Below, in pieces: positions 10,084-30,356 of a stretch of DNA of 30,356 nt. Both the position numbers and the translations under genes were made by a program. Under the pieces are notes generated by a model. That model worked only from the letters and a program-made list of their open reading frames with translations, was not told the origin of the DNA and searched no databases. Positions within the stretch are counted from its first letter, which is position 1; each line of letters opens with the position of its first letter. The DNA is from Candidatus Microgenomates bacterium (GTDB taxonomy: Bacteria > Patescibacteriota > Microgenomatia > UBA1406 > GWC2-37-13). The stretch spans positions 1 to 30,356 of the forward strand of contig WFWI01000077.1 in the NCBI GenBank assembly GCA_015491205.1, given 5' to 3'.

Positions 10084-11607
10084 CTAAGCCTCCTGTCTTG
10101 GACGATACTGCAAGGCTTCGGCAATAAATTCGGGCAAAATCTTCTCCTCTCCCTGAAGATCTGCAATTGTCTGGGCTATCTTTATGATTTTAAAGTAAGA
10201 ACGGGCAGAAAGGGAAAGCCTGTCCACAGCCTGTTTTAAAAGCTCCTTTGCCTGAGGCTCCAAATTGCAAAACTTTTTAATCTCCCTTGGCGTAAGCTGG
10301 CTGTTATACAAAACCTTTCCATAACGCTCCCTTTGCCTTTTTAAAGCCATCTCCACCCTTTCCCTGACTTTGGAACTTTCCTCTTCCTCTCCCTCTCCTA
10401 CCAGCTTTTCTGTATCAACATCAGGCACTTCAACGTGAAGGTCTATCCTGTCCATTATTGGGCCTGAGATTCTCTGGCGGTATTTTAAAATCATCCTGGG
10501 TGTGCAGCGACAAGGTTTTTTTGGATGACCAAAAAATCCACAAGGACAAGGATTAGAAGCAGCCAAAAGTATAAATCGAGCAGGAAAGGTGGCAAACCCA
10601 GCAGCACGCGAGACAGTAATCTCTCCATCCTCCAAAGGCTGGCGCAGGGCCTCCATCACAGAGCGAGGGAACTCTGGAAACTCATCCAAAAACAAAACTC
10701 CCCTGTGGGCCAGCGTTACCTCTCCTGGCTTTGGCCTTGAACCTCCACCAATAAGCCCGATACGAGAGGTTGTATGATGGGGAGAACGAAAGGGCCGGGT
10801 CTTAACAAGCCCTTCCTTGGGTAAAAGACCTACAACAGAATAAATCCTTGAAACCTCCAAAACCTCCTCCTGAGTCATTTTCGGCAGAATAGAAACAAAA
10901 GCGCGAGCCAAAAGGGTTTTTCCTGTGCCTGGCGGGCCGTAAAGATGCACATTGTGAAACCCAGCTGCTGCTATCTCCAAAGCCCTTTTTGCTTTATGCT
11001 GGCCTTTTATATCTTTAAAATCAACCTCTGCTCCTTCAAAATTTAATGCAAGATCCAAAGGCTCAGCTTTTTCAAGAGAAGAAATTTCATTAAGGTGCAA
11101 AACCAAGCTCTTTAAATCCTCAACTGGATAAACTTCAATTTCCTTGTAAAAACTTGCCTCTCTAGCATTTTCCTTTGGCAGAAAAATCCTTTTAAACCCC
11201 TCTTTGACCGCAAGCTCTGTTAAAGGTAAAACTCCATTTACTTTCTTTAATCTTCCATCCAAAGAAAGCTCTCCAATAAAAAAACTATCCTGCAAAAGGG
11301 ATCTTTCAACCGCACCTGAGGCCGCTAGAATACCAATACTTAAAGGAAGATCCAAGAAAGTCCCCTCCTTTGGAAGATCAGCTGGAGCCAAGTTTACTGT
11401 AATACGCGTCTCCGGCATGGAAAAACCAGAGTTTTTTATGCCTGCCCTTATTCTTTCCTTTGCTTCGTCAATTGCCTTGCTTGGAAGACCAACTAACGAA
11501 AATGTAGGCAAGCCATGGGAAGAAACATCAACTTCAACTTCTACAAGCTCTCCCCCAATCCCAAGGATTGTCCCAGAAAAAACTTTTGACAACATAACCT
11601 CTTTCAT
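10084..11607 (-). CDS. comM: YifB/ComM family Mg-chelatase-like AAA+ ATPase
   Basis: VGLPSKAIDEAKERI, RITVNLAPADLPKEG..DLP, Walker A GPPGTGKT, FRSPHHT, LAHRGVLFLDEFPEF, NPCPCG, SGPIMDRID, LSARSY. Confidence 0.95.
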   Translation of the reverse strand: MKEVMLSKVFSGTILGIGGELVEVEVDVSSHGLPTFSLVGLPSKAIDEAKERIRAGIKNSGFSMPETRITVNLAPADLPKEGTFLDLPLSIGILAASGAVERSLLQDSFFIGELSLDGRLKKVNGVLPLTELAVKEGFKRIFLPKENAREASFYKEIEVYPVEDLKSLVLHLNEISSLEKAEPLDLALNFEGAEVDFKDIKGQHKAKRALEIAAAGFHNVHLYGPPGTGKTLLARAFVSILPKMTQEEVLEVSRIYSVVGLLPKEGLVKTRPFRSPHHTTSRIGLIGGGSRPKPGEVTLAHRGVLFLDEFPEFPRSVMEALRQPLEDGEITVSRAAGFATFPARFILLAASNPCPCGFFGHPKKPCRCTPRMILKYRQRISGPIMDRIDLHVEVPDVDTEKLVGEGEEEESSKVRERVEMALKRQRERYGKVLYNSQLTPREIKKFCNLEPQAKELLKQAVDRLSLSARSYFKIIKIAQTIADLQGEEKILPEFIAEALQYRPRQEA

Positions 11608-11617
11608 TTTTCAAACA

Positions 11618-11630
11618 AGTATATTATGAT
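11618..11630. promoter_or_regulatory. Back-to-back -10 boxes for comM and cohesin gene
   Basis: Minus TATACT (11623..11618), 10 nt before ATG 11607; plus TATGAT (11625-11630), 8 nt before ATG 11639. Confidence 0.45.
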
Positions 11631-11638
11631 TTTATTGT

Positions 11639-12241
11639 ATGATAAAGTTGCTTTTACTTTCAATATTTTTTTACGTTCTTGTTCTACCCAGACCTGTTTA
11701 TGCTCTTACTTTTGGACTCATTGGACCAACTGAGCAGCTTGTCAGAGGACAAGAAGTGACATTTACAATTACAGTTGATACAAAAGGAGAAAGTCTATCT
11801 ACTGCTAGAATAGGTCTTCAATACGAAACACAATATTTAGAATTTCTAAACGCAATTCCAGGAGACACATTTACCTCAATATCAGTAGAAGAAATTGAGC
11901 CTGGAAAGCTTGTTCTTACTGGAACATCCACTACTCCCTTCAACGGAGAAGGAGTCTTTTCTTACGTAAAGTTTAAGCTAATTGCAGATAGTCCAGGCAC
12001 AAGCCAATTATGTTCTCTGTTTAACCCAGACAGTGTCGAGACCTCTCCTACCCCCACAACAACCCCTACTCCTACCACTCCTCCACCACAGGCCCAGACT
12101 ACCTCTATCCCTACTCCAACTGCACTTCTTAAAAGCGGCAGCACATCGCTTCAAGAAAAAGCTTTTACAATAGGAGTTGTTCTTTTAACACTCCCTTTGG
12201 CAGGCTTAGTTTTATCAAGATTTAAAAGAATCCCTTTTTAG
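11639..12241 (+). CDS. Secreted cohesin-domain protein with Pro/Thr linker and C-terminal membrane anchor
   Basis: Signal peptide; cohesin-like beta-sandwich pattern (VTFTITVDT...IGLQYETQYLEF...GEGVFSYVKFK); PTPTTTPTPTTPPP linker; LLKSG + hydrophobic helix + RFKR tail. Confidence 0.7.
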   Translation: MIKLLLLSIFFYVLVLPRPVYALTFGLIGPTEQLVRGQEVTFTITVDTKGESLSTARIGLQYETQYLEFLNAIPGDTFTSISVEEIEPGKLVLTGTSTTPFNGEGVFSYVKFKLIADSPGTSQLCSLFNPDSVETSPTPTTTPTPTTPPPQAQTTSIPTPTALLKSGSTSLQEKAFTIGVVLLTLPLAGLVLSRFKRIPF

Positions 12242-14065
12242 ATAGAAAAATATACTACCCGCAATACTAACAAGCATAATGAATAAAAGTCCTATTATTC
12301 CCCACAAGAATCTTTTTGCTTGCTCACCTTCTGAAGAGATATCCTTATAATAAACTGGAGAAGGAGTTAGCTTAGCCTTCTCAACCTTTCTATTTTCATC
12401 TGCTTTCAAATACTGAGCCTTAATTTTTTCCCTTTCTTCTGTAGGAAAAGTTATAGGCTTGCCAGCTTTTTGATTTTTTACAAGATCAAGGCTTTCCTTT
12501 TCCAAATAATCTTTGTTTAAAGAAACAAATTGAGAGGTAGTATAAGCGTACACTTTGTTTTCGCTCTCTATTTGTAAATAATAAGGAAAACGAGGTAGGT
12601 ATTCCGGAAGAATTCTTATGAAACCATTCCCATCAGCCTGAGCTTCAAGCAGAACATTTCCTGTAGAATAAGAAATTATCTTTACCTTAGCATAAGGCAA
12701 CACCTTCTTTTTGTCATCATAAACATAGCCTTCAATATAAGACAATATGGGTTCAAATTTAACCTTAGTTCTGTAAAGATTGGTAGATGCTTTTGCTTTT
12801 ATTTTATAAGTTAATACTTCCTTTATCCTACCAACAATTTTTCTAAACCAACCATCTTTAGAAAGAGCTAGATTCACCTTTTCAACCTCCAACACAAGAC
12901 TCCTGTCTTGTGGAACCTCTTTTAAAGACAACTCAACCCTCCACCTCCCGTTCTTATCAGATTGAGCCCTGGCCACAACCCTTCCTGATCCTTCCTCACG
13001 TAAAATTCCGATGCTAAAAGGATGAGAAAACCTAGCAGTAAATCCTACCTTACCTGATGGTAAGATTAAATGACCGTAATCAAAAATAACAACCTCACCC
13101 TCATAAGGAGTACCCAAAGGATTTAAAGGAATATCACATTGTATTAGTTTTCCTCTTTCCTCAATTATATATTTGTCATTATAAAGCTCTGCTCCAACTT
13201 CAGGATCACAACTGTATGCCTTAGAAAACCCAGGATTTATATCAGAAATATCTACAGGAAAAGAATAACCTGTCTTCTCAACTTCAAGCTTATATCTTCC
13301 TTCCGGCACCATAAAGGTAAATACACCATCTGGACCAGTTAATTTCTCAGGTTTAAATCCAGGCCTTGCTGGCAATAGATTTTCACTCTCATCTAAAATT
13401 CTAACGCGCACATCTGGCAAAGGCTCAAGACTTTTCGCATCAAACACTCTACCAGCAGGATCCCAATAAATCGAAATACACTCTGAAGGATCTTGGGTAA
13501 AAACAAGTTCTCCAAACTGTACTGTTTTTTCTCTTGGAATCCCGTCTCCAGACAATGGAATTATCCCAAAAAACCGGTGGTCCTCTGGATTTGCCGTTGC
13601 ACTCCTTACTATCATTTCAACCTTATCTCCATCTGCTCTTACAGGGTTTTCTAGAATCTCAAACTCATAAACCTCTCCTCCTACAGTTGGGTTAGCTTCA
13701 GCATCAAATCCAAGCCTTGTAAGCTCTCTATTCAACCTTGTATCGCCTGTTCTTGCTGTACACATATAATTGTTTCCAGTTGAAACACATCCAACTATGT
13801 AAATATCCACATTTGAAGGAAATCCTGTACCAGAAATTTTTAAAGTATGATCTTTCTTTTGAGGGTTAGGATACTTTGCAGGATCAAGCGATTTACACTC
13901 ATAATTGGAAGAACAAGTGGGAAAATACGTTTCTTCTATCTTAAGACATCTAGTCTCATATCCTACAACTTCGCTTTGAGCCTGGACAAGACTAGGAAAA
14001 CTTAGTACAAAAGCTGTTGACAAAAAAAGTATGGCTGTTTTAAAAAAACTGATCAACCCTATCAT
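12215..14065 (-). CDS. Large surface protein with carboxypeptidase-regulatory-like (prealbumin-fold) domains
   Basis: N-terminal signal; 8 Cys in the N-terminal half; GRVFDAKSLEPLPDVRVRI...GPDGVFTFMVPEGRYKLEVEKTGY and GYVYDDKKKVLPYAKVKI...ADGNGF patterns; C-terminal TM. Confidence 0.7.
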   Translation of the reverse strand: MIGLISFFKTAILFLSTAFVLSFPSLVQAQSEVVGYETRCLKIEETYFPTCSSNYECKSLDPAKYPNPQKKDHTLKISGTGFPSNVDIYIVGCVSTGNNYMCTARTGDTRLNRELTRLGFDAEANPTVGGEVYEFEILENPVRADGDKVEMIVRSATANPEDHRFFGIIPLSGDGIPREKTVQFGELVFTQDPSECISIYWDPAGRVFDAKSLEPLPDVRVRILDESENLLPARPGFKPEKLTGPDGVFTFMVPEGRYKLEVEKTGYSFPVDISDINPGFSKAYSCDPEVGAELYNDKYIIEERGKLIQCDIPLNPLGTPYEGEVVIFDYGHLILPSGKVGFTARFSHPFSIGILREEGSGRVVARAQSDKNGRWRVELSLKEVPQDRSLVLEVEKVNLALSKDGWFRKIVGRIKEVLTYKIKAKASTNLYRTKVKFEPILSYIEGYVYDDKKKVLPYAKVKIISYSTGNVLLEAQADGNGFIRILPEYLPRFPYYLQIESENKVYAYTTSQFVSLNKDYLEKESLDLVKNQKAGKPITFPTEEREKIKAQYLKADENRKVEKAKLTPSPVYYKDISSEGEQAKRFLWGIIGLLFIMLVSIAGSIFFYLKRDSFKS

Positions 14066-14076
14066 TTTATAATTTA

Positions 14077-14140
14077 ATAATAAGCTTCCGTTTTCTTTCT
14101 GTCAACTCATATTGAAAGATAAACCTTTTTTTCTTATCAT
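14077..14140. promoter_or_regulatory. Divergent sigma70 promoter pair
   Basis: Minus TTGACA (14105..14100)-N17-TATTAT (14082..14077); plus TTGAAA (14112-14117)-N17-TATCAT (14135-14140), 6 nt before ATG 14147. Confidence 0.7.
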
Positions 14141-14146
14141 AAAAAA

Positions 14147-16960
14147 ATGATTAGAAAAACAAAACTAATCTTTTCAATTATATTTTTGCTCTTACTGCCT
14201 CTGTTTTTACAGGTATTAGCTCAATCCCCTACTCCAAGACCTTGCCAAAATTCAGGTTGTCCTATTGCCCCTTCACAACTGAATTATCAATGTGCTGCCT
14301 CCTACCAAGATTGGCTTTCCGATCCTTCCCAAAATTTTTGGGTAGAAGACGAAGAAATAACTTTCCTTGGGAAAAATGCTGAGCGGGCAAGACAGTTCCT
14401 CTACTGGGTATTAAACCGTTCTCCCATCTATTATCACAGGTCTATTTTTGAGTCCTGGGGCTCAACCCGAAATTTGGCCTTTGCTCTTGTTTTTCTTACA
14501 GCTGCCCTTGCGGGGGTGGGAATAATTGTTGCCCGCCGTTTTACTTTTTCAACAAAGCTAGATGTTAAAAATATAATTCTAAAACTCCTAGGAATAATAT
14601 TATATGTAACATTCTCAGCTACACTTGTAATAACCATAATCCAGCTTTCTGACATTCTAATGAGGTTTTTTGTAGAAAACCTAAATGTAGGAAACCTTTT
14701 TAATATTTTCTTTACAAGACCAGAAGGGTTTGTGCTTTCTGACTCAGAAACAGCTTACAGAAGTTTTGTTGGATGCAAGAATATAAGCACTCAAGCTGTA
14801 GAATCAGTAAAAATATCTATATTCTTAGTAAAAATTACTAATCTAACCTACTTTTTAATAGGTCTTCTGCTTCTTATACGCCAAATCATCCTCTGGCTTC
14901 TTGTTGCTATCTCACCCTTTCTTGCTATCCTCTTGTTCTTTAAGATAGTAAAAAACGTCGGGAAAATTTGGATTGGCGTATTTTTCCAATGGGTCTTTTA
15001 TGGCCCTTTAGTAGCTTTGTTTTTGGGAACAGTCTCTAAAATGTGGCAATATGGAATACCTTTTAATTTTAACTTTACCCGAGCCAACACTCCAGAAGGC
15101 TTCGTCTATCCAACAGCTATAAGCATCCTTTATGGAGGCCCCTCTCAACAACTTGCCTTTATGAACAGCTCGAACTACGTTGACACTTTTGCCGAATATG
15201 TAATCTCTATCCTTATGCTTTGGGCTGCTATCGTGCTTCCTTGGTGGCTGCTGCGAACTTTCCGTGACTACTGCTGTGATGGGATTTACGCTATTAAGAA
15301 CCTTCTTATGGCTTTTTATGAAAATTATCGCGGCAAAAAACCTCCTTCTCCGCCTACGCCCACTCCACCTGATTTAAAATCAGCCATTAAAGCTGCCTTA
15401 AAGATTGAACAGCCAGCCAAGGAAAAAATAAAAATTGAACTTGGGGCTTTGCAAGATATTAAGAAGTTAAGGACAACTGACATAGTAGCAAATATAAATC
15501 TGAAGGTAAACGCTTTACACGACCTTGTTAAAATTGAAACCAACAAGGCTTACAAAGAAAAAATTGAAAGAACCCTAACATCATTAAAGCAACCTGACAG
15601 AATTGCCAACCCTAAAGAAAGGGAGAAAATAATGCAGCTTAAGACAGAGCTTTATCAGCGAGCCAAAAAGCAAGATAAAGTGGCTCAAAGAATTCTACAG
15701 GCCACCTCAACTTCAGTCATCGAAAGAGAAAAAGTTAAAAAAGAAGTCATCCAAAAAATTCCACAAGCAGCCCCTGCTCAAAAACTTGTAGCCTCCACCA
15801 CAAAACTACCACCTCAACAGATAACCAATATTTTCAGCAACTTGGTACAAAACTTTGTCAAAAACACAACCTTAACTAAAACCCTTTCCCAAACTACTCA
15901 GCTTCCAAAGGAAAAAATCTCGCAAATACTTATCGAATTTACAAACAATCTATCTCTTCCTTTAACTTCAGTGATAAATAAGATTTCTAAAACTACCCAG
16001 GTTGAAAAGGAAAAAATAAAACAAACTATAAAAACGTTTACAAATGTAATAAAAACCTCTTCCCTTATTTCCCACACAGCTAAAAAAGAAAAAGTAGAAA
16101 GAGAAAAAGTAAAGGAAACAATTGCAAAGTTAACAAAAGCCACGCCCCAGCAAATTCCAGAAAAAGAAACTTCCATAATAAAAGCCCTTCACGAGACAAT
16201 ACTCCAAAAAGAGGAGCTGGTAACCACCCTCTCACACCAAACAAATGTAGAAAAACAAGTTATAAAACAGATCCTAACCCAAGCAAAAGATGAAGAAGAG
16301 TTCAAACAATTGTCTTCAGACCCACAAAAACTAACTGTGCTTTCCCAAATTTACACTACTATTTTGCAATCGGATGAGTTGGTAGATGAAGTGTCAAAAC
16401 AAACTGGGGTAAGAAGAGAAGTTATTGAAAAAACTATTACTGAAGCCCTTCCAAAAGTAGCAGAAGCAGAACAAAACATAGAACAAGCTGTTCCTGTGCC
16501 GCCTACTGTTTCAATTGAAGAATATGAAAATACCAAAAAACTATGGAAACACCACTATCTCAAAGGCGAGGTGCCAGTCTCAGAGAATATAACCTCGCGC
16601 AAAGAATGGGTAGAGCAGGACATAATCTACCTTACAAACATTTTAAACAAACTCTTATCCGATGACGAAAAGCTAAAAGAAGAAGCTATGGAAGAGCTAT
16701 CTTACCTTCTACCGATCTTTATTATCAATGATCTTTCACCTGAACAACTCTTGGTTTACCTTAAGGCCAAGCTTGAAGCAGCCAAGGAAGTCAAAGAAGA
16801 GCTTGAAAAAGAAGAGGAGCTTAAAGAAAAACTGAAAAAAGAGATGGAAAAGGAAGAGCTTGTTGAAGTGCCGCTCGAAAGGAAAAAGAAAGAGGAAAAA
16901 CAAAAAGAGTTAAAACAAGAATTATCCCAAGAATTGCCTGAAGAAGAAAATGAGGTTTAA
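14147..16960 (+). CDS. Large polytopic membrane protein, TrbL/VirB6-like N-terminal half and long charged cytoplasmic tail
   Basis: About 7-8 hydrophobic segments including LLLLIRQIILWLLVAISPFLAIL...WIGVFFQWVFYGP (VirB6/TrbL-like pattern), then a Pro-rich hinge and K/E/Q/T-rich helical tail. Confidence 0.6.
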   Translation: MIRKTKLIFSIIFLLLLPLFLQVLAQSPTPRPCQNSGCPIAPSQLNYQCAASYQDWLSDPSQNFWVEDEEITFLGKNAERARQFLYWVLNRSPIYYHRSIFESWGSTRNLAFALVFLTAALAGVGIIVARRFTFSTKLDVKNIILKLLGIILYVTFSATLVITIIQLSDILMRFFVENLNVGNLFNIFFTRPEGFVLSDSETAYRSFVGCKNISTQAVESVKISIFLVKITNLTYFLIGLLLLIRQIILWLLVAISPFLAILLFFKIVKNVGKIWIGVFFQWVFYGPLVALFLGTVSKMWQYGIPFNFNFTRANTPEGFVYPTAISILYGGPSQQLAFMNSSNYVDTFAEYVISILMLWAAIVLPWWLLRTFRDYCCDGIYAIKNLLMAFYENYRGKKPPSPPTPTPPDLKSAIKAALKIEQPAKEKIKIELGALQDIKKLRTTDIVANINLKVNALHDLVKIETNKAYKEKIERTLTSLKQPDRIANPKEREKIMQLKTELYQRAKKQDKVAQRILQATSTSVIEREKVKKEVIQKIPQAAPAQKLVASTTKLPPQQITNIFSNLVQNFVKNTTLTKTLSQTTQLPKEKISQILIEFTNNLSLPLTSVINKISKTTQVEKEKIKQTIKTFTNVIKTSSLISHTAKKEKVEREKVKETIAKLTKATPQQIPEKETSIIKALHETILQKEELVTTLSHQTNVEKQVIKQILTQAKDEEEFKQLSSDPQKLTVLSQIYTTILQSDELVDEVSKQTGVRREVIEKTITEALPKVAEAEQNIEQAVPVPPTVSIEEYENTKKLWKHHYLKGEVPVSENITSRKEWVEQDIIYLTNILNKLLSDDEKLKEEAMEELSYLLPIFIINDLSPEQLLVYLKAKLEAAKEVKEELEKEEELKEKLKKEMEKEELVEVPLERKKKEEKQKELKQELSQELPEEENEV

Positions 16961-26412: not shown

Positions 26413-27495
26413 TTATACTACTTCCACCCTCTCCCCTTCCACTTTCACCACTCCCTTTATCTCAAGCATTGAAAGGAGCGACAAAAGGCGGTTTATTGGA
26501 AAACCTGTTTTTAATCTTAAATCTTCAATCTCAGCTGCTCTTCCTTCAAAAGCTGACAAAATTTTCTCTTCCTCAGGCAAAAGATTGGCCTTGTCTTCTC
26601 CATAAACTTTTACCTCTGGTAAGTACTCCTCTACAATCTCCTCTACCTTCTCAACCAACTTTGCGCCCTGCTTTATTAAAAGGTTTGGCGCTCTTGCTTG
26701 TCTGTCAAAAATCCTGCCTGGCGTGGCAAAAACATCCCTGCCTTGCTGCCCAGCATAACGGGCTGTAATTAAAGAGCCTGAGGTCTCGCTTCCCTCAACC
26801 ACCAAAACGCCCTTTGACAGACCTGAGATAATCCTGTTTCTTGCAATAAAAAGGCCTTTTTGAACAGTTGTGCCAGGAGGAAATTCTGAAATTACAAGTC
26901 CGCCCCTCTCAAGGATTTTGTTGTAAAGCGGCCGGTTTAAAGCAGGATAAACAACATCCACCCCGCACCCCAAAACCGCAATAGTTTTTCCCTCCCCTTC
27001 CAAAGCTCCTTTGTGAGCGCTGCTGTCTACCCCTAAAGCCATGCCAGAGACTATACAAAATCCTGCACGGGCAAGCTCCTTTGCAAAAGAAAAGGCCACC
27101 TGCCTGCCGTAATCTGTTGGCTGCCTTGTGCCAACTATCGCAAAATAAAGCCCCTTTTTAAAATCAAAGCTCTCCCAATCGCCTTTCACATAAAGACAGA
27201 TTGGCGGATCAGGAATATTCTTTAGAGCCTCCGGATAATCCTCATCGCAAAGCGCCACAACTCTTATGCCCTTGCCTTCACATTTTTCAAGCTCCTTTTC
27301 TATCTTAAACTCGCTCCTAAACTTTTCAAACTTTTCTGCAACTTTCTCGCCCAAAACTTCTTTTAAATTCTTAAAACTCTCCTTGTAAGCTTTTTCAGCT
27401 GAGCCAAAGTGAGCTAGAAGTTTTCCAAAACGCTCCGGCCCAATGCCAAAAAAATTGGAAAAAGCAAAGTAATACAACCTTTCCATTTTATCCAT
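26413..27495 (-). CDS. dprA: DNA-processing protein DprA (Smf)
   Basis: YPEALKNIPDPP.CLYVKG, AIVGTR, IVSGMALGVD..AH, RNRIISGLS..VLVVEG..SGSLITA..A..QGRDVFA.PG, C-terminal winged helix. True start may be ATG 27486. Confidence 0.96.
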   Translation of the reverse strand: MDKMERLYYFAFSNFFGIGPERFGKLLAHFGSAEKAYKESFKNLKEVLGEKVAEKFEKFRSEFKIEKELEKCEGKGIRVVALCDEDYPEALKNIPDPPICLYVKGDWESFDFKKGLYFAIVGTRQPTDYGRQVAFSFAKELARAGFCIVSGMALGVDSSAHKGALEGEGKTIAVLGCGVDVVYPALNRPLYNKILERGGLVISEFPPGTTVQKGLFIARNRIISGLSKGVLVVEGSETSGSLITARYAGQQGRDVFATPGRIFDRQARAPNLLIKQGAKLVEKVEEIVEEYLPEVKVYGEDKANLLPEEEKILSAFEGRAAEIEDLRLKTGFPINRLLSLLSMLEIKGVVKVEGERVEVV

Positions 27496-27501
27496 TATAA
27501 T
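27494..27501. promoter_or_regulatory. Palindromic shared -10 element ATTATAAT between dprA and prgI
   Basis: Plus TATAAT 27496-27501 (9 nt before ATG 27511); minus TATAAT 27499..27494 (7 nt before the in-frame ATG 27486). Confidence 0.65.
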
Positions 27502-27510
27502 AATTTAAAG

Positions 27511-28275
27511 ATGTATAAGCACCCAATCCCAAGGCAGATTACCACCTTTGAGTTTAAACTTATTGGCTTTTTAACTTTAAAGCAGTTTCTTTATCTTGTG
27601 ATTTTTTTTCCTTTAGGATACATCTTTTACGTGCTAACTCCTATACCTTACGTCAATATTCTATTAGGAAGTTCTATCGCCTTAATCGGCCTTGCTTTTG
27701 CGTTTTTGAAAATTCAAGAGCGGCCCTTGGAAGTCTGGCTTAAAAATCTGTTAAAAAGCCTCTCCTCGCCTACAATTTATGTCTACAAAAAAAACAATCT
27801 TGCGCCTGAGTATTTGAAGGACATAGTTCTTCCTACCTCACCAGTCAACGAGCATCTTGCCGCAAGAAAACACCTTAAAAACTACCTCTCCCAAAAAAAG
27901 TCAACCCAAGTAAAGGAAAAAAAAGGGCTTATAAGCTCGCTTTTCTTTTTCAAACCAAAAAAACAGGAAGCAGCCCAAGAAAAAAAGGAACAAACCCCTC
28001 CCTTAAACCAGCCCTTTCTTTCTGGAGTTGTCAAAAGCTCAAAGCAAGTTCCTTTGCCTGGAATTCTGGTTTATATCAAAGACCCAGAAGGCAATCCAGT
28101 GAGACTCATGAAGACCAACCCCCATGGCGTTTTTGCCACTTTCAAGCCGTTAAAAGATGGCTCATACACAATTGAAGCCTACGATCCCACAGGCGCAAAC
28201 ACCTTTGATAAAATGGAAATACAGGTGGAAGGAAGGATAACCTATCCTGTTGAAATTGTTGCCAAAAGCCTATGA
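27511..28275 (+). CDS. prgI: PrgI-family (VirB3-like) membrane protein fused to a C-terminal carboxypeptidase-regulatory-like domain
   Basis: HPIPRQITTFEFKLIGFLTLKQFLYL, two TMs, KIQERPLEVW; C-terminal SGVVKS...LPGILVYIKD...TNPHGVF...GSYTIEA. Confidence 0.8.
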   Translation: MYKHPIPRQITTFEFKLIGFLTLKQFLYLVIFFPLGYIFYVLTPIPYVNILLGSSIALIGLAFAFLKIQERPLEVWLKNLLKSLSSPTIYVYKKNNLAPEYLKDIVLPTSPVNEHLAARKHLKNYLSQKKSTQVKEKKGLISSLFFFKPKKQEAAQEKKEQTPPLNQPFLSGVVKSSKQVPLPGILVYIKDPEGNPVRLMKTNPHGVFATFKPLKDGSYTIEAYDPTGANTFDKMEIQVEGRITYPVEIVAKSL

Positions 28276-28922
28276 AAGCAAAGGATTTTAAAAACGTGCC
28301 CAAGGCTGCCACGCAGGATTTTATAGAGATTGAAGAGGTTTTTGAGGATATAGTAATGTTCAAAGACTACTCCTGTGTTAACATCATTGAGGTTGGCGCG
28401 ATAAACTATTGGTTTTTGTCCCAAGAAGAGCAAGAATCGGTCATCTACTCCTTTGCTGAGTTTTTAAACTCGCTCTCCTTTCCAATCCAGATTCTTATCC
28501 TTTCCAAAAAAATGGACATCTCCTCCTACCTTGAATATCTTGACTCAAAAATTTTCGAGCAGAAAAACCCTAGGTTTAAGGAGCTTTTAAAAAAATACAA
28601 AAACTTTATTAAAAACATTGTTGTTCAAAACACAGTTTTGGAAAGGCGTTATTTTATAGTTGTCCCCTTCTCTCCTTTAGAGCTTGGGATCCAGGCTGCC
28701 AAGGGTAAGCTTAACAAACAATACGTTTTAAACCGGGCCAAGACCTCACTTTACCCAAAAAGGGATCACATCCTGCGGCTTTTGGCAAAAATCGGGCTTA
28801 AAGGCTCAGTGCTTGGAAAGCAAGAAATAGTTGAGCTTTTCCACAACCTTTACAATCCATCCGCAACCGGAGTAAAGCTTGCACCAATTGAAAGTTATAC
28901 TGATGTTATTCAAACAACTTGA
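28272..28922 (+). CDS. TraC/VirB4 N-terminal-like conjugation-associated protein
   Basis: ATQDFIEIEEV...IIEVGAINYWFLSQEEQESVIYSFAEFLNSLSFPIQI...RYFIVVPF pattern; coupled between prgI and the VirB4 ATPase. Confidence 0.65.
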   Translation: MKAKDFKNVPKAATQDFIEIEEVFEDIVMFKDYSCVNIIEVGAINYWFLSQEEQESVIYSFAEFLNSLSFPIQILILSKKMDISSYLEYLDSKIFEQKNPRFKELLKKYKNFIKNIVVQNTVLERRYFIVVPFSPLELGIQAAKGKLNKQYVLNRAKTSLYPKRDHILRLLAKIGLKGSVLGKQEIVELFHNLYNPSATGVKLAPIESYTDVIQTT

Positions 28923-28928
28923 AATCTT

Positions 28929-30356
28929 ATGTTTTTTTCAAAAAACAAAAATAAAAAAACACAAGGCAAAAAAGCAGCCGATATTTTAGCAAAAGGCATG
29001 GTAAGCGTAAAAGATCTCATAGCCCCTCATTTTATTGAAGTTGATTTCAACCACATAAAAGTCAATGAAACTTATTACAGAACCCTTTTTGTCAGCGGCT
29101 ATCCGCGCTATGTTTCAGCCAACTGGCTTCACCCCTTAATCACTTTTGACCACCCCCTTTACATCTCAATGTTTATTTACCCAACTGAGTCAAAGGAGAT
29201 CCTGGAGCAGCTTAAGAAAAAAATTGCTGAAATGGAGGCAACAATTGAAAGCCAGATAAGACAGGGAAAAGTGGTCGACCCAGCCCTGCAGGTTGCTTTG
29301 GATGATGCTTTAGCGCTTCAGGCAGAGCTTGCCAAAGGCGCAGAGCGCTTTTTCCAATTTGCTCTTTACATCACAATTCCCGCCAAAGACAAGAAAGAGC
29401 TTGAAAATATTACAAAACAAGTAAAATCCCTTTTATCCTCCCTTCTTATCATCTCCCACCCAGCAACGCTTCAAATGGAAGAAGGCTTTAAAGCCACCCT
29501 TCCAATGTTTAAAGACAGACTTAATATTTTGCGCAATATGGACACGACCTCAATTGCCCTTACCTTCCCGTTTTCCACTGCCTCATTAACCCAAAACGAA
29601 GGCATTCTTTATGGCGTCAACACCCACGATGGAAGCCTCATCATCTTTGACAGGTTCAAAATGGAAAATGCCAACTCCGTAATTTTAGGTAAATCAGGCG
29701 GTGGAAAAAGCTTTTTGGTAAAGCTTGAGGCTTTAAGGCTTTTAACCTTGGGCGTGGAGGTAATAATTGTTGATCCGGAGAATGAGTATAAAAAACTGGC
29801 TGAATCAGCAGGCGGCGAGTTTATTGAATTTGCCCTGGACTCGCCTTATAAAATAAACCCGTTTGAGCTGCCAAAGGATAACATTGAGCCTGATGAGCTT
29901 CAAAGCAAAATCTTAGATCTTCACGGACTTTTGAAAGTAATGCTTGGAGAAGTCACTCCAAGCCAGGATGCTCTCTTGGACAAAGCCTTAGTCTTAACCT
30001 ATCAACAAAAAGGAATCACCCTTGACCCTGACACCTTTCAAAACGAACCTCCGCTCTTGGAGGACCTTTACAAAGTGCTTATTGGCATGGAAACTCCAGA
30101 GGCAAAGGAGCTTGCGAACAGGCTTGAAAAATTTGTCAAAGGCTCAGCTGCTGGGATCCTAAATCAGCGCTCAACCATAGACCTTAAAAACCAGTTTACA
30201 GTTTTTGGCCTAAGAGACCTGGAGGAGAATTTAAGGCCTGTTGTAATGTACATTGTGCTTGATTATATTTGGCGAAAAATAAGGAAAGATCGAAAAAAAA
30301 GGATTTTGGTGGTTGATGAGGCCTGGTGGCTTATTAAAAACAAGGATTCAGGTGCC
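28929..30356 (+). CDS. virB4: VirB4/TraC-like type IV secretion ATPase, 3' partial
   Basis: Not in ORF track (no stop in window). MFFSKNK...KDLIAPHFIEVDFNHIKV...GYPRYVSANWL; Walker A GKSGGGKS at 29688-29711, IIVDPENEY, KINPF, Walker B ILVVDEAW at 30303-30326, all in one frame. Confidence 0.9.
   Translation, partial: MFFSKNKNKKTQGKKAADILAKGMVSVKDLIAPHFIEVDFNHIKVNETYYRTLFVSGYPRYVSANWLHPLITFDHPLYISMFIYPTESKEILEQLKKKIAEMEATIESQIRQGKVVDPALQVALDDALALQAELAKGAERFFQFALYITIPAKDKKELENITKQVKSLLSSLLIISHPATLQMEEGFKATLPMFKDRLNILRNMDTTSIALTFPFSTASLTQNEGILYGVNTHDGSLIIFDRFKMENANSVILGKSGGGKSFLVKLEALRLLTLGVEVIIVDPENEYKKLAESAGGEFIEFALDSPYKINPFELPKDNIEPDELQSKILDLHGLLKVMLGEVTPSQDALLDKALVLTYQQKGITLDPDTFQNEPPLLEDLYKVLIGMETPEAKELANRLEKFVKGSAAGILNQRSTIDLKNQFTVFGLRDLEENLRPVVMYIVLDYIWRKIRKDRKKRILVVDEAWWLIKNKDSGA

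Follow-up and report, generated by a model that had tools for sequence, protein, structure and literature searches.

The question raised by this locus is whether a type IV secretion system (T4SS) operon that stands head-to-head with the transformation gene dprA belongs to a DNA-uptake machine or is the core of an ordinary secretion system beside a lineage-specific neighbour. The locus lies in a stretch of 30,356 bp (the window), which is a complete contig (C77) of an 838-kb metagenome-assembled genome (MAG) in 128 contigs; the MAG is of a Roizmanbacteria-like member of the Microgenomatia and was derived from hydrothermal-vent metagenomes. In this contig, a prgI / TrsD-like / virB4 operon diverges from dprA across a very short spacer. 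An earlier note on this DNA had proposed that both transcription units are fired from one shared palindromic −10 element and that the T4SS is co-regulated with transformation. The analyses described here indicated that the operon is probably the usual, vertically transmitted core of the Patescibacteria-clade T4SS, a system derived from the monoderm conjugation machinery of mating pair formation (MPF) class FATA, and that the dprA neighbourhood is a lineage-specific juxtaposition. A relaxase-unlinked chromosomal T4SS core has already been published for the Patescibacteria, together with the idea of DNA import. The earlier note had rightly identified a known system and had over-read its neighbour as a sign of co-regulation.

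The prgI / TrsD-like / virB4 trio was present in all 41 relatives of the order, with VirB4 proteins that were 62 to 79% identical, and in 80 of 80 related Microgenomatia loci; VirB4 was detected in 145 of the 151 genomes sampled across the phylum. The genes flanking the trio were housekeeping genes that differed between genomes (dnaA, dnaN, rpsA, HIT and others), and the GC content was flat along the window. No relaxase, integrase or tyrosine recombinase was detected on C77 or on C15, the contig on which the locus continues, att sites not having been searched, and the recombinases of the MAG sit on other contigs (C74 and C13). Mob_Pre and Replic_Relax were not found, the Replic_Relax control itself matching in no genome. 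This distribution points to a T4SS that is resident, chromosomal and vertically inherited, without a linked relaxase, and agrees with the resident machine envisaged in the earlier note. An integrative conjugative element around the T4SS genes was considered and rejected on the same grounds, namely the lack of a linked relaxase or integrase, the flat GC content and the retention of the locus in all relatives.

The link between dprA and prgI was not conserved across the Patescibacteria, an outcome that the earlier note had itself named as refuting its proposal. Among nine fully inspected relatives, dprA was near the trio only in the closest relative (KatS3mg090), where dprA and prgI are separated by an aminotransferase gene. 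When 40 relatives were considered, 11 had dprA and virB4 on one contig; the two genes were 31 to 136 kb apart in 10 of these pairs and near each other in one. The 80 best Microgenomatia loci, 67 of which have at least 1.5 kb of sequence upstream of prgI, included only two with dprA upstream of prgI (KatS3mg090 and KatS3mg091), and the aminotransferase gene intervened in both. About 20 genomes in the phylum sample had dprA and virB4 on one contig; the closest pairs, from two genomes of one family, were 10 to 11 kb apart, and no genome of this sample had dprA within 5 kb of virB4. Direct adjacency was unique to this genome, in which the aminotransferase gene is found on another contig, and near placement was confined to the closest clade. 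As linkage was not conserved at the family, class or phylum level, the 15-bp juxtaposition is taken to be a recent local rearrangement confined to one lineage. Short spacers are common in this genome, with 11 of 81 divergent gene pairs having a spacer of 15 bp or less, and neither DprA nor ComM is mentioned in the supplement text of PMC12102498. Had the dprA-T4SS pair been conserved, it would have spoken for nucleic-acid import on genetic grounds; a pairing restricted to one lineage, which looks like an accident of gene order, adds little support for a role in DNA uptake.

The layout of the spacer itself was as the earlier note had described, including the palindromic octamer ATTATAAT with TATAAT on both strands (Table 1). 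The dprA-prgI junction was spanned by Logan contigs belonging to two runs of a metagenome study of hydrothermal vents, indicating that the junction is not an assembly artefact. Promoters were examined across the whole genome, and −10-like hexamers were found to peak 15 to 12 nt before the ATG. They start at each of these positions in 23 to 36 genes, the background being about 5, and roughly a quarter of 481 genes have one there; no Shine-Dalgarno peak was detected genome-wide. Transcripts of this genome seem as a rule to be leaderless or nearly so, and these two results bear out a separate note by the earlier reader on leaderless starts. In a comparison of the 40 nt upstream of prgI (loci L023-L102), an exact TATACT started at −14 to −11 relative to the ATG in 63 of 77 Microgenomatia loci, 43 of them exactly at −12, whatever the upstream gene. 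The virD4 gene lies directly upstream of prgI in some Microgenomatia, and such loci (L026, L027 and L076) were among the exceptions. As TATACT was conserved irrespective of the upstream gene, prgI is predicted to have its own −10-only leaderless promoter, the equivalent of which in the window would be TATAAT at −15 to −10 or AATAAT at −12 to −7.

Table 1. Positions of the T4SS genes, of candidate promoter elements and of neighbouring genes in the window
Feature	Position	Strand	Evidence and remarks
PrgI/VirB3-like membrane protein, 254 aa	27511-28275	+	PF12666, 38.4 bits against a cut-off of 27, E 1.9e-9
TrsD-like protein, 216 aa	28272-28922	+	NCBIfam VirB4/TrsD models; no Pfam match
VirB4 ATPase, N-terminal 476 aa	28929-30356	+	Pfam CagE_TrbE_VirB, P-loop_TraG, AAA_10; truncated by contig end
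dprA	26413-27495	-	Pfam DNA_processg_A 3e-77 and DprA_WH; heads the leftward run dprA / UPF0047 / DUF72
dprA-prgI divergent spacer	27496-27510	.	15 bp
Palindromic octamer ATTATAAT	27494-27501	both	Sequence
TATAAT, candidate −10 of prgI	27496-27501	+	Sequence
TAAATT, candidate −10 six nt before the dprA ATG	27507-27502	-	Sequence
Extended VirB6/TrbL-like polytopic membrane protein, 937 aa (predicted)	14147-16960	+	Family and fold evidence
Surface protein, 616 aa	12215-14065	-	Pfam and hydropathy: signal peptide, CarboxypepD_reg-like domain, C-terminal transmembrane anchor
Cohesin-like surface protein, 200 aa	11639-12241	+	Pfam Cohesin 7.8e-5, just below cut-off; signal peptide, C-terminal transmembrane anchor; synteny
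ComM/YifB-family helicase	10084-11607	-	Pfam Mg_chelatase, ChlI, Mg_chelatase_C

On the dprA side, the minus-strand TATAAT (27499-27494) shares bases with the first ATG of the gene (27495-27493), and the only transcript that it could drive is one that begins at the fourth codon (ATG at 27486). The N termini of dprA orthologs (M followed by five residues and YY, in several cases with MDK at the beginning) speak for the ATG at 27495 as the start, and for this ATG the hexamer TAAATT stands at the canonical −12 to −7. A single −10 shared by both genes would fit dprA only with the disfavoured start, and it is more likely that each gene has its own −10-only leaderless promoter, the two −10 boxes lying side by side and each falling in the discriminator region of the other. 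The octamer occurred once in the window, against 0.65 copies expected, and at least one copy was present in 48 of 100 shuffles, indicating that its occurrence is not above chance. A two-hexamer sigma-70 scan detected no −35/−10 pair in the 15-bp spacer, a null result that says little because promoters here look to be of the −10-only type.

The prgI and TrsD-like genes share a 4-bp ATGA overlap, and the gap from the TrsD-like gene to virB4 is 6 nt; an operon structure is, therefore, plausible. The virB4 gene continues on C15 (L013 11892..11206), which overlaps C77 by 381 bp at 95% identity, and the complete protein has about 585 aa. Identification of PrgI and VirB4 by Pfam and the close spacing of the genes agreed with the prgI-traC-virB4 operon of the earlier note, but the middle gene was TrsD-like and not traC. 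The middle protein, which was 53 to 77% identical across the order, matched the NCBIfam models VirB4_plasma (NF045975, 4.3e-14, positions 93-280), CD1110 (NF045971, 6.4e-8, positions 1-170) and TrsD (NF041427, 2.8e-6). The TrsD match was below the curated cut-off, and the matches to the N-terminal 170 to 190 residues of VirB4 models were stronger. The full-length VirB4 of the closest relative (79% identical) scored 407.6 bits on the CD1110-family VirB4 model NF045971 (cut-off 325) over positions 178-734. As the two proteins tile one FATA-type VirB4, the middle gene was called TrsD-like, and assignment as traC was rejected; its product would be equivalent to a detached N-terminal domain of a FATA-type VirB4. 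BLASTP revealed no paralogy between the TrsD-like protein and VirB4 (E 8.8), and a profile of the TrsD-like family detected nothing meaningful among PDB sequences.

The PrgI-like protein, the sole PrgI match in the genome, has two N-terminal transmembrane helices (segments at residues 15-66) followed by a C-terminal CarboxypepD_reg-like beta-sandwich. Classical VirB3 proteins have about 100 aa. Across the order, the PrgI/VirB3-like proteins have 254 to 355 aa, with the beta-sandwich (CarboxypepD_reg-like, sub-threshold) placed after a charged linker. Contigs from two runs carried a 9-nt in-frame insertion (three residues) at 27951, in the lysine-rich linker of PrgI, which represents strain variation.

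The other parts expected of a T4SS were detected outside the operon. Beyond the end of virB4, C15 carries in order a convergent generic phosphoribosyltransferase gene, a few housekeeping genes, a ComF-family gene (TIGR00201, 96.5 bits, aligned over the full length), a small tetratricopeptide repeat (TPR) gene, an acylphosphatase gene (AcyP) and, 5 kb downstream, the gene for a VirD4-type coupling protein of 791 aa. A VirD4 ortholog was present in 41 of 41 relatives (65 to 76% identity), and this conserved type IV coupling protein (T4CP) had matches to DNA-binding-domain families. Six genes for VirB2-like pilins were found elsewhere in the genome (PF18895 T4SS_pilin, all above cut-off). Both the coupling protein and the pilins had been among the parts that the earlier note suggested looking for. 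The 199-aa generic phosphoribosyltransferase (PRT199; L013 10617-11216) adjoined the trio in 17 of 80 loci, its gene either converging on virB4 or immediately preceding prgI; it was rejected as a ComF-like protein, having only generic phosphoribosyltransferase matches by NCBIfam.

A VirB6-like protein had been suspected between 11.6 and 17 kb, and the 937-aa membrane protein encoded there has a signal peptide, about seven transmembrane helices and a long hydrophilic repeat-rich tail by hydropathy. It was the only TrbL candidate in the genome, with a Pfam score of its own that was sub-threshold; the window sequence alone gave no Pfam match even at E 5. A profile of its N-terminal domain found 828 representatives, and Pfam TrbL was matched by 19 of 73 aligned members of the family (best 6.7e-7). 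An initial AlphaFold2 model of this domain from 8 sequences was unusable (pLDDT [predicted local distance difference test] of 44.6) and was replaced by a model from the 73-sequence alignment, which had a pLDDT of 90.1. TrwI/VirB6 of R388 accounted for five of the six best PDB matches of the new model (7o3v, best E 0.05, probability 0.99), and clusters of the AlphaFold database named TrbL/VirB6 were matched at E 1e-5 to 1e-8. The protein is, on this family and fold evidence, predicted to be VirB6-like. The gene for the 616-aa surface protein is divergent from the VirB6-like gene and accompanies the VirB6-like gene and ComM in relatives, and the ComM gene is head-to-head with the cohesin gene at a distance of 31 bp.

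Comparison with known systems placed the locus close to the Patescibacteria-clade T4SS, known from the S. epibionticum system of Wang et al. 2023 (PMC10633639) and from the description by Quinonero-Coronel et al. 2025 (PMC12102498); in the latter, genes in the order VirB3/PrgI-TrsD-VirB4 are chromosomal, relaxases are absent and the import of DNA or other macromolecules was proposed. The present system shares this gene order, the chromosomal location, vertical inheritance and the lack of a linked relaxase, as well as a VirB6-like protein, VirB2-like pilins, a distant T4CP and, in relatives, flanking dnaA and dnaN genes. It differs in that dprA abuts prgI, an arrangement that has not been reported, the published link to competence genes being that of comF, recG and radA in the class ABY1. 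A divergent, extended VirB6-like protein is present in this family, although VirB6 was reported to be scarce in the Microgenomatia. The order of VirB3-like, TrsD and VirB4 genes is also that of the MPF-FATA plasmid systems of the pGO1/pSK41 and pIP501 types (TrsC-TrsD-TrsE), as reflected in the NCBIfam matches to TrsD and CD1110-type VirB4, and the monoderm architecture without VirB7, VirB9 or VirB10 is that of Gram-positive MPF-FATA systems. Unlike these plasmid systems, the one described here has no linked relaxase or oriT, is encoded by chromosomal core genes, and has VirB2-like pilins and an extra C-terminal beta-sandwich in PrgI.

ComB of Helicobacter pylori and the system here have in common that they are T4SS-derived machines that could work alongside ComEC, ComFC and DprA; both are independent of a relaxase. 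ComB is, however, a diderm system of VirB2-4 and VirB6-10 without a coupling protein, whereas the present system is of the monoderm FATA type with a conserved VirD4, its dprA linkage is not conserved and DNA uptake is only a hypothesis. The archaeal Ced/Ted import systems likewise combine a VirB4/HerA-like ATPase, a VirB6-like membrane protein and VirB2-like pilins, but sequence similarity is distant (weak NCBIfam CedB/CedD matches of 58.9 bits against a cut-off of 700) and the partners differ.

By homology with these systems, PrgI/VirB3 and the TrsD-like N-domain protein would anchor the VirB4 ATPase at the membrane, and VirB4 would work with the VirB6-like channel, the VirD4-like coupling ATPase and the VirB2-like pilins, the assembled parts forming a contact-dependent conduit to the host cell. 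The comparative data suggest that the mRNA of the operon would have little or no leader, its −10-only promoter lying directly against the prgI ATG, while dprA would most likely use its own −10 and would most likely serve the canonical ComEA/ComEC/ComFC/ComM transformation pathway. Among the published ideas on what the essential Patescibacteria T4SS transports, nucleic-acid import from the host is a leading one; S. epibionticum is the only species in which the T4SS has been shown to be required for epibiotic growth (Wang et al. 2023, PMC10633639). For the system described here, import of host nucleic acid is possible, though somewhat short of probable; effector export is rather unlikely, as is any other combination of substrate and direction.

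Several observations weigh against treating the T4SS as an ordinary core with an incidental neighbour. All three T4SS clusters of this genome are head-to-head with an operon that holds a transformation gene, the gaps being 31 bp between ComM and the cohesin, surface protein and VirB6-like cluster, 15 bp between DprA and PrgI-TrsD-VirB4, and 37 bp between VirD4 and TPR-AcyP-ComFC. The closest relative (KatS3mg090) packs VirD4, ComFC, the VirB6-like protein, DprA, the trio, two surface proteins and ComM into 29 kb (C1:34.9-64.0 kb), with housekeeping genes interspersed. In 12 genera of the family, no more than 5 kb separates ComM from the VirB6-like gene, and comF, recG and radA are found at the T4SS loci of class ABY1 (PMC12102498). 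Furthermore, the promoter assignments set out above are themselves predictions. Some functional tie of the T4SS with recombination genes is, therefore, possible. ComM lies 15 to 34 bp downstream of the surface-protein gene in some genomes, and four genera have ComFC no farther than 5 kb from VirD4. The linkage of ComM to the VirB6-like gene was absent in nine checkable genomes of other families in the class; as the class-level search found the VirB6-like family in only 13 of 111 genomes at E 1e-25, this linkage was testable outside the family in just 9 to 10 genomes. The ComM and ComFC linkages are clade-restricted and non-independent and can be regarded as suggestive. Two findings count against a tie with transformation: the genome encodes the full canonical set of ComEA, ComEC, ComFC, DprA and ComM, and S. 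epibionticum can do without comEC, comF or dprA but not without its T4SS, and depends on comEC for transformation (PMC10633639).

The model built on the earlier note is that the T4SS is a DNA-uptake machine coupled to DprA, with divergent operons sharing one palindromic −10, co-regulation with transformation, and imported single-stranded DNA being passed to DprA, ComFC and ComM. The 15-bp head-to-head layout is real in the population, the coincidence of three such layouts with ComM, DprA and ComFC and the consolidation into 29 to 42 kb in the clade of this genome and KatS3mg090 are in its favour, and if dprA were to start at the ATG at 27486, the minus-strand TATAAT would begin at −13, within the genome-wide leaderless peak. 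The recombination genes at the ABY1 loci, the published proposal of DNA import and a conserved T4CP with DNA-binding-domain matches are also in keeping with it. Co-regulation is, however, difficult to reconcile with an adjacency that is unique to this genome, a prgI promoter that is conserved independently of the upstream gene, an octamer that is not above chance and ortholog N termini that favour the first dprA ATG. One −10 and one polymerase would, moreover, be expected to lead to competition between the two directions rather than to co-firing, and the dispensability of dprA, comF and comEC beside an essential T4SS in S. epibionticum also stands against the coupling. This proposal was, consequently, considered improbable. 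A variant limited to the hot-spring and vent clade of Microgenomatia (this genome and KatS3mg090/091) supposes that all T4SS parts (VirD4, the VirB6-like surface module and PrgI-TrsD-VirB4), together with ComFC, DprA and ComM, were drawn into one region of 30 to 42 kb, with a transformation gene facing each T4SS cluster head-to-head, since the T4SS would import host DNA as single strands that are processed by ComFC, DprA and ComM, with leaderless divergent promoters coupling expression; this would be a long shot.

Another alternative is that the T4SS and VirD4 still serve conjugation or mobilization, for instance of a relaxase-bearing element on contig C61. While no relaxase or integrase was present on C77 or C15, as the earlier note had claimed for this locus, the MAG does hold a relaxase on this separate contig, which encodes a NikA/MobC-like ribbon-helix-helix protein, a 752-aa MobA/VirD2-type relaxase fused to Toprim, and a helix-turn-helix protein (3.2 kb, GC 0.35; L103 1-3164). 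A conserved T4CP would suit such a role. Relaxases are, however, rare in the Patescibacteria (PMC12102498), and the C61 relaxase was found in 0 of 40 relatives, as against the T4SS and T4CP in all. C61 is unlinked to the T4SS genes and has a lower GC content (0.35, compared with about 0.39). A mis-binned plasmid is possible, and C61 probably represents a small mobilizable plasmid or element, or a binning guest. A continuing role in conjugation was, therefore, judged very unlikely.

With the operon read as an ordinary, vertically inherited T4SS core, the observations of most use for further work are the extended VirB6-like family for the Microgenomatia, the conserved leaderless TATACT of the prgI operon and the family-level block of ComM and the VirB6-like gene. 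The internal order of this block (ComM, surface protein, cohesin-like and VirB6-like genes; 10084-16960 in the window) was shuffled across the 12 genera, and its flanks were not conserved. On contig C71 (L104 870-3362), comEA is followed by comEC as two stop-separated open reading frames, one encoding a Competence domain (268 aa) and the other a metallo-beta-lactamase domain (285 aa), and either the gene is split or the stop is an artefact of sequencing or strain.

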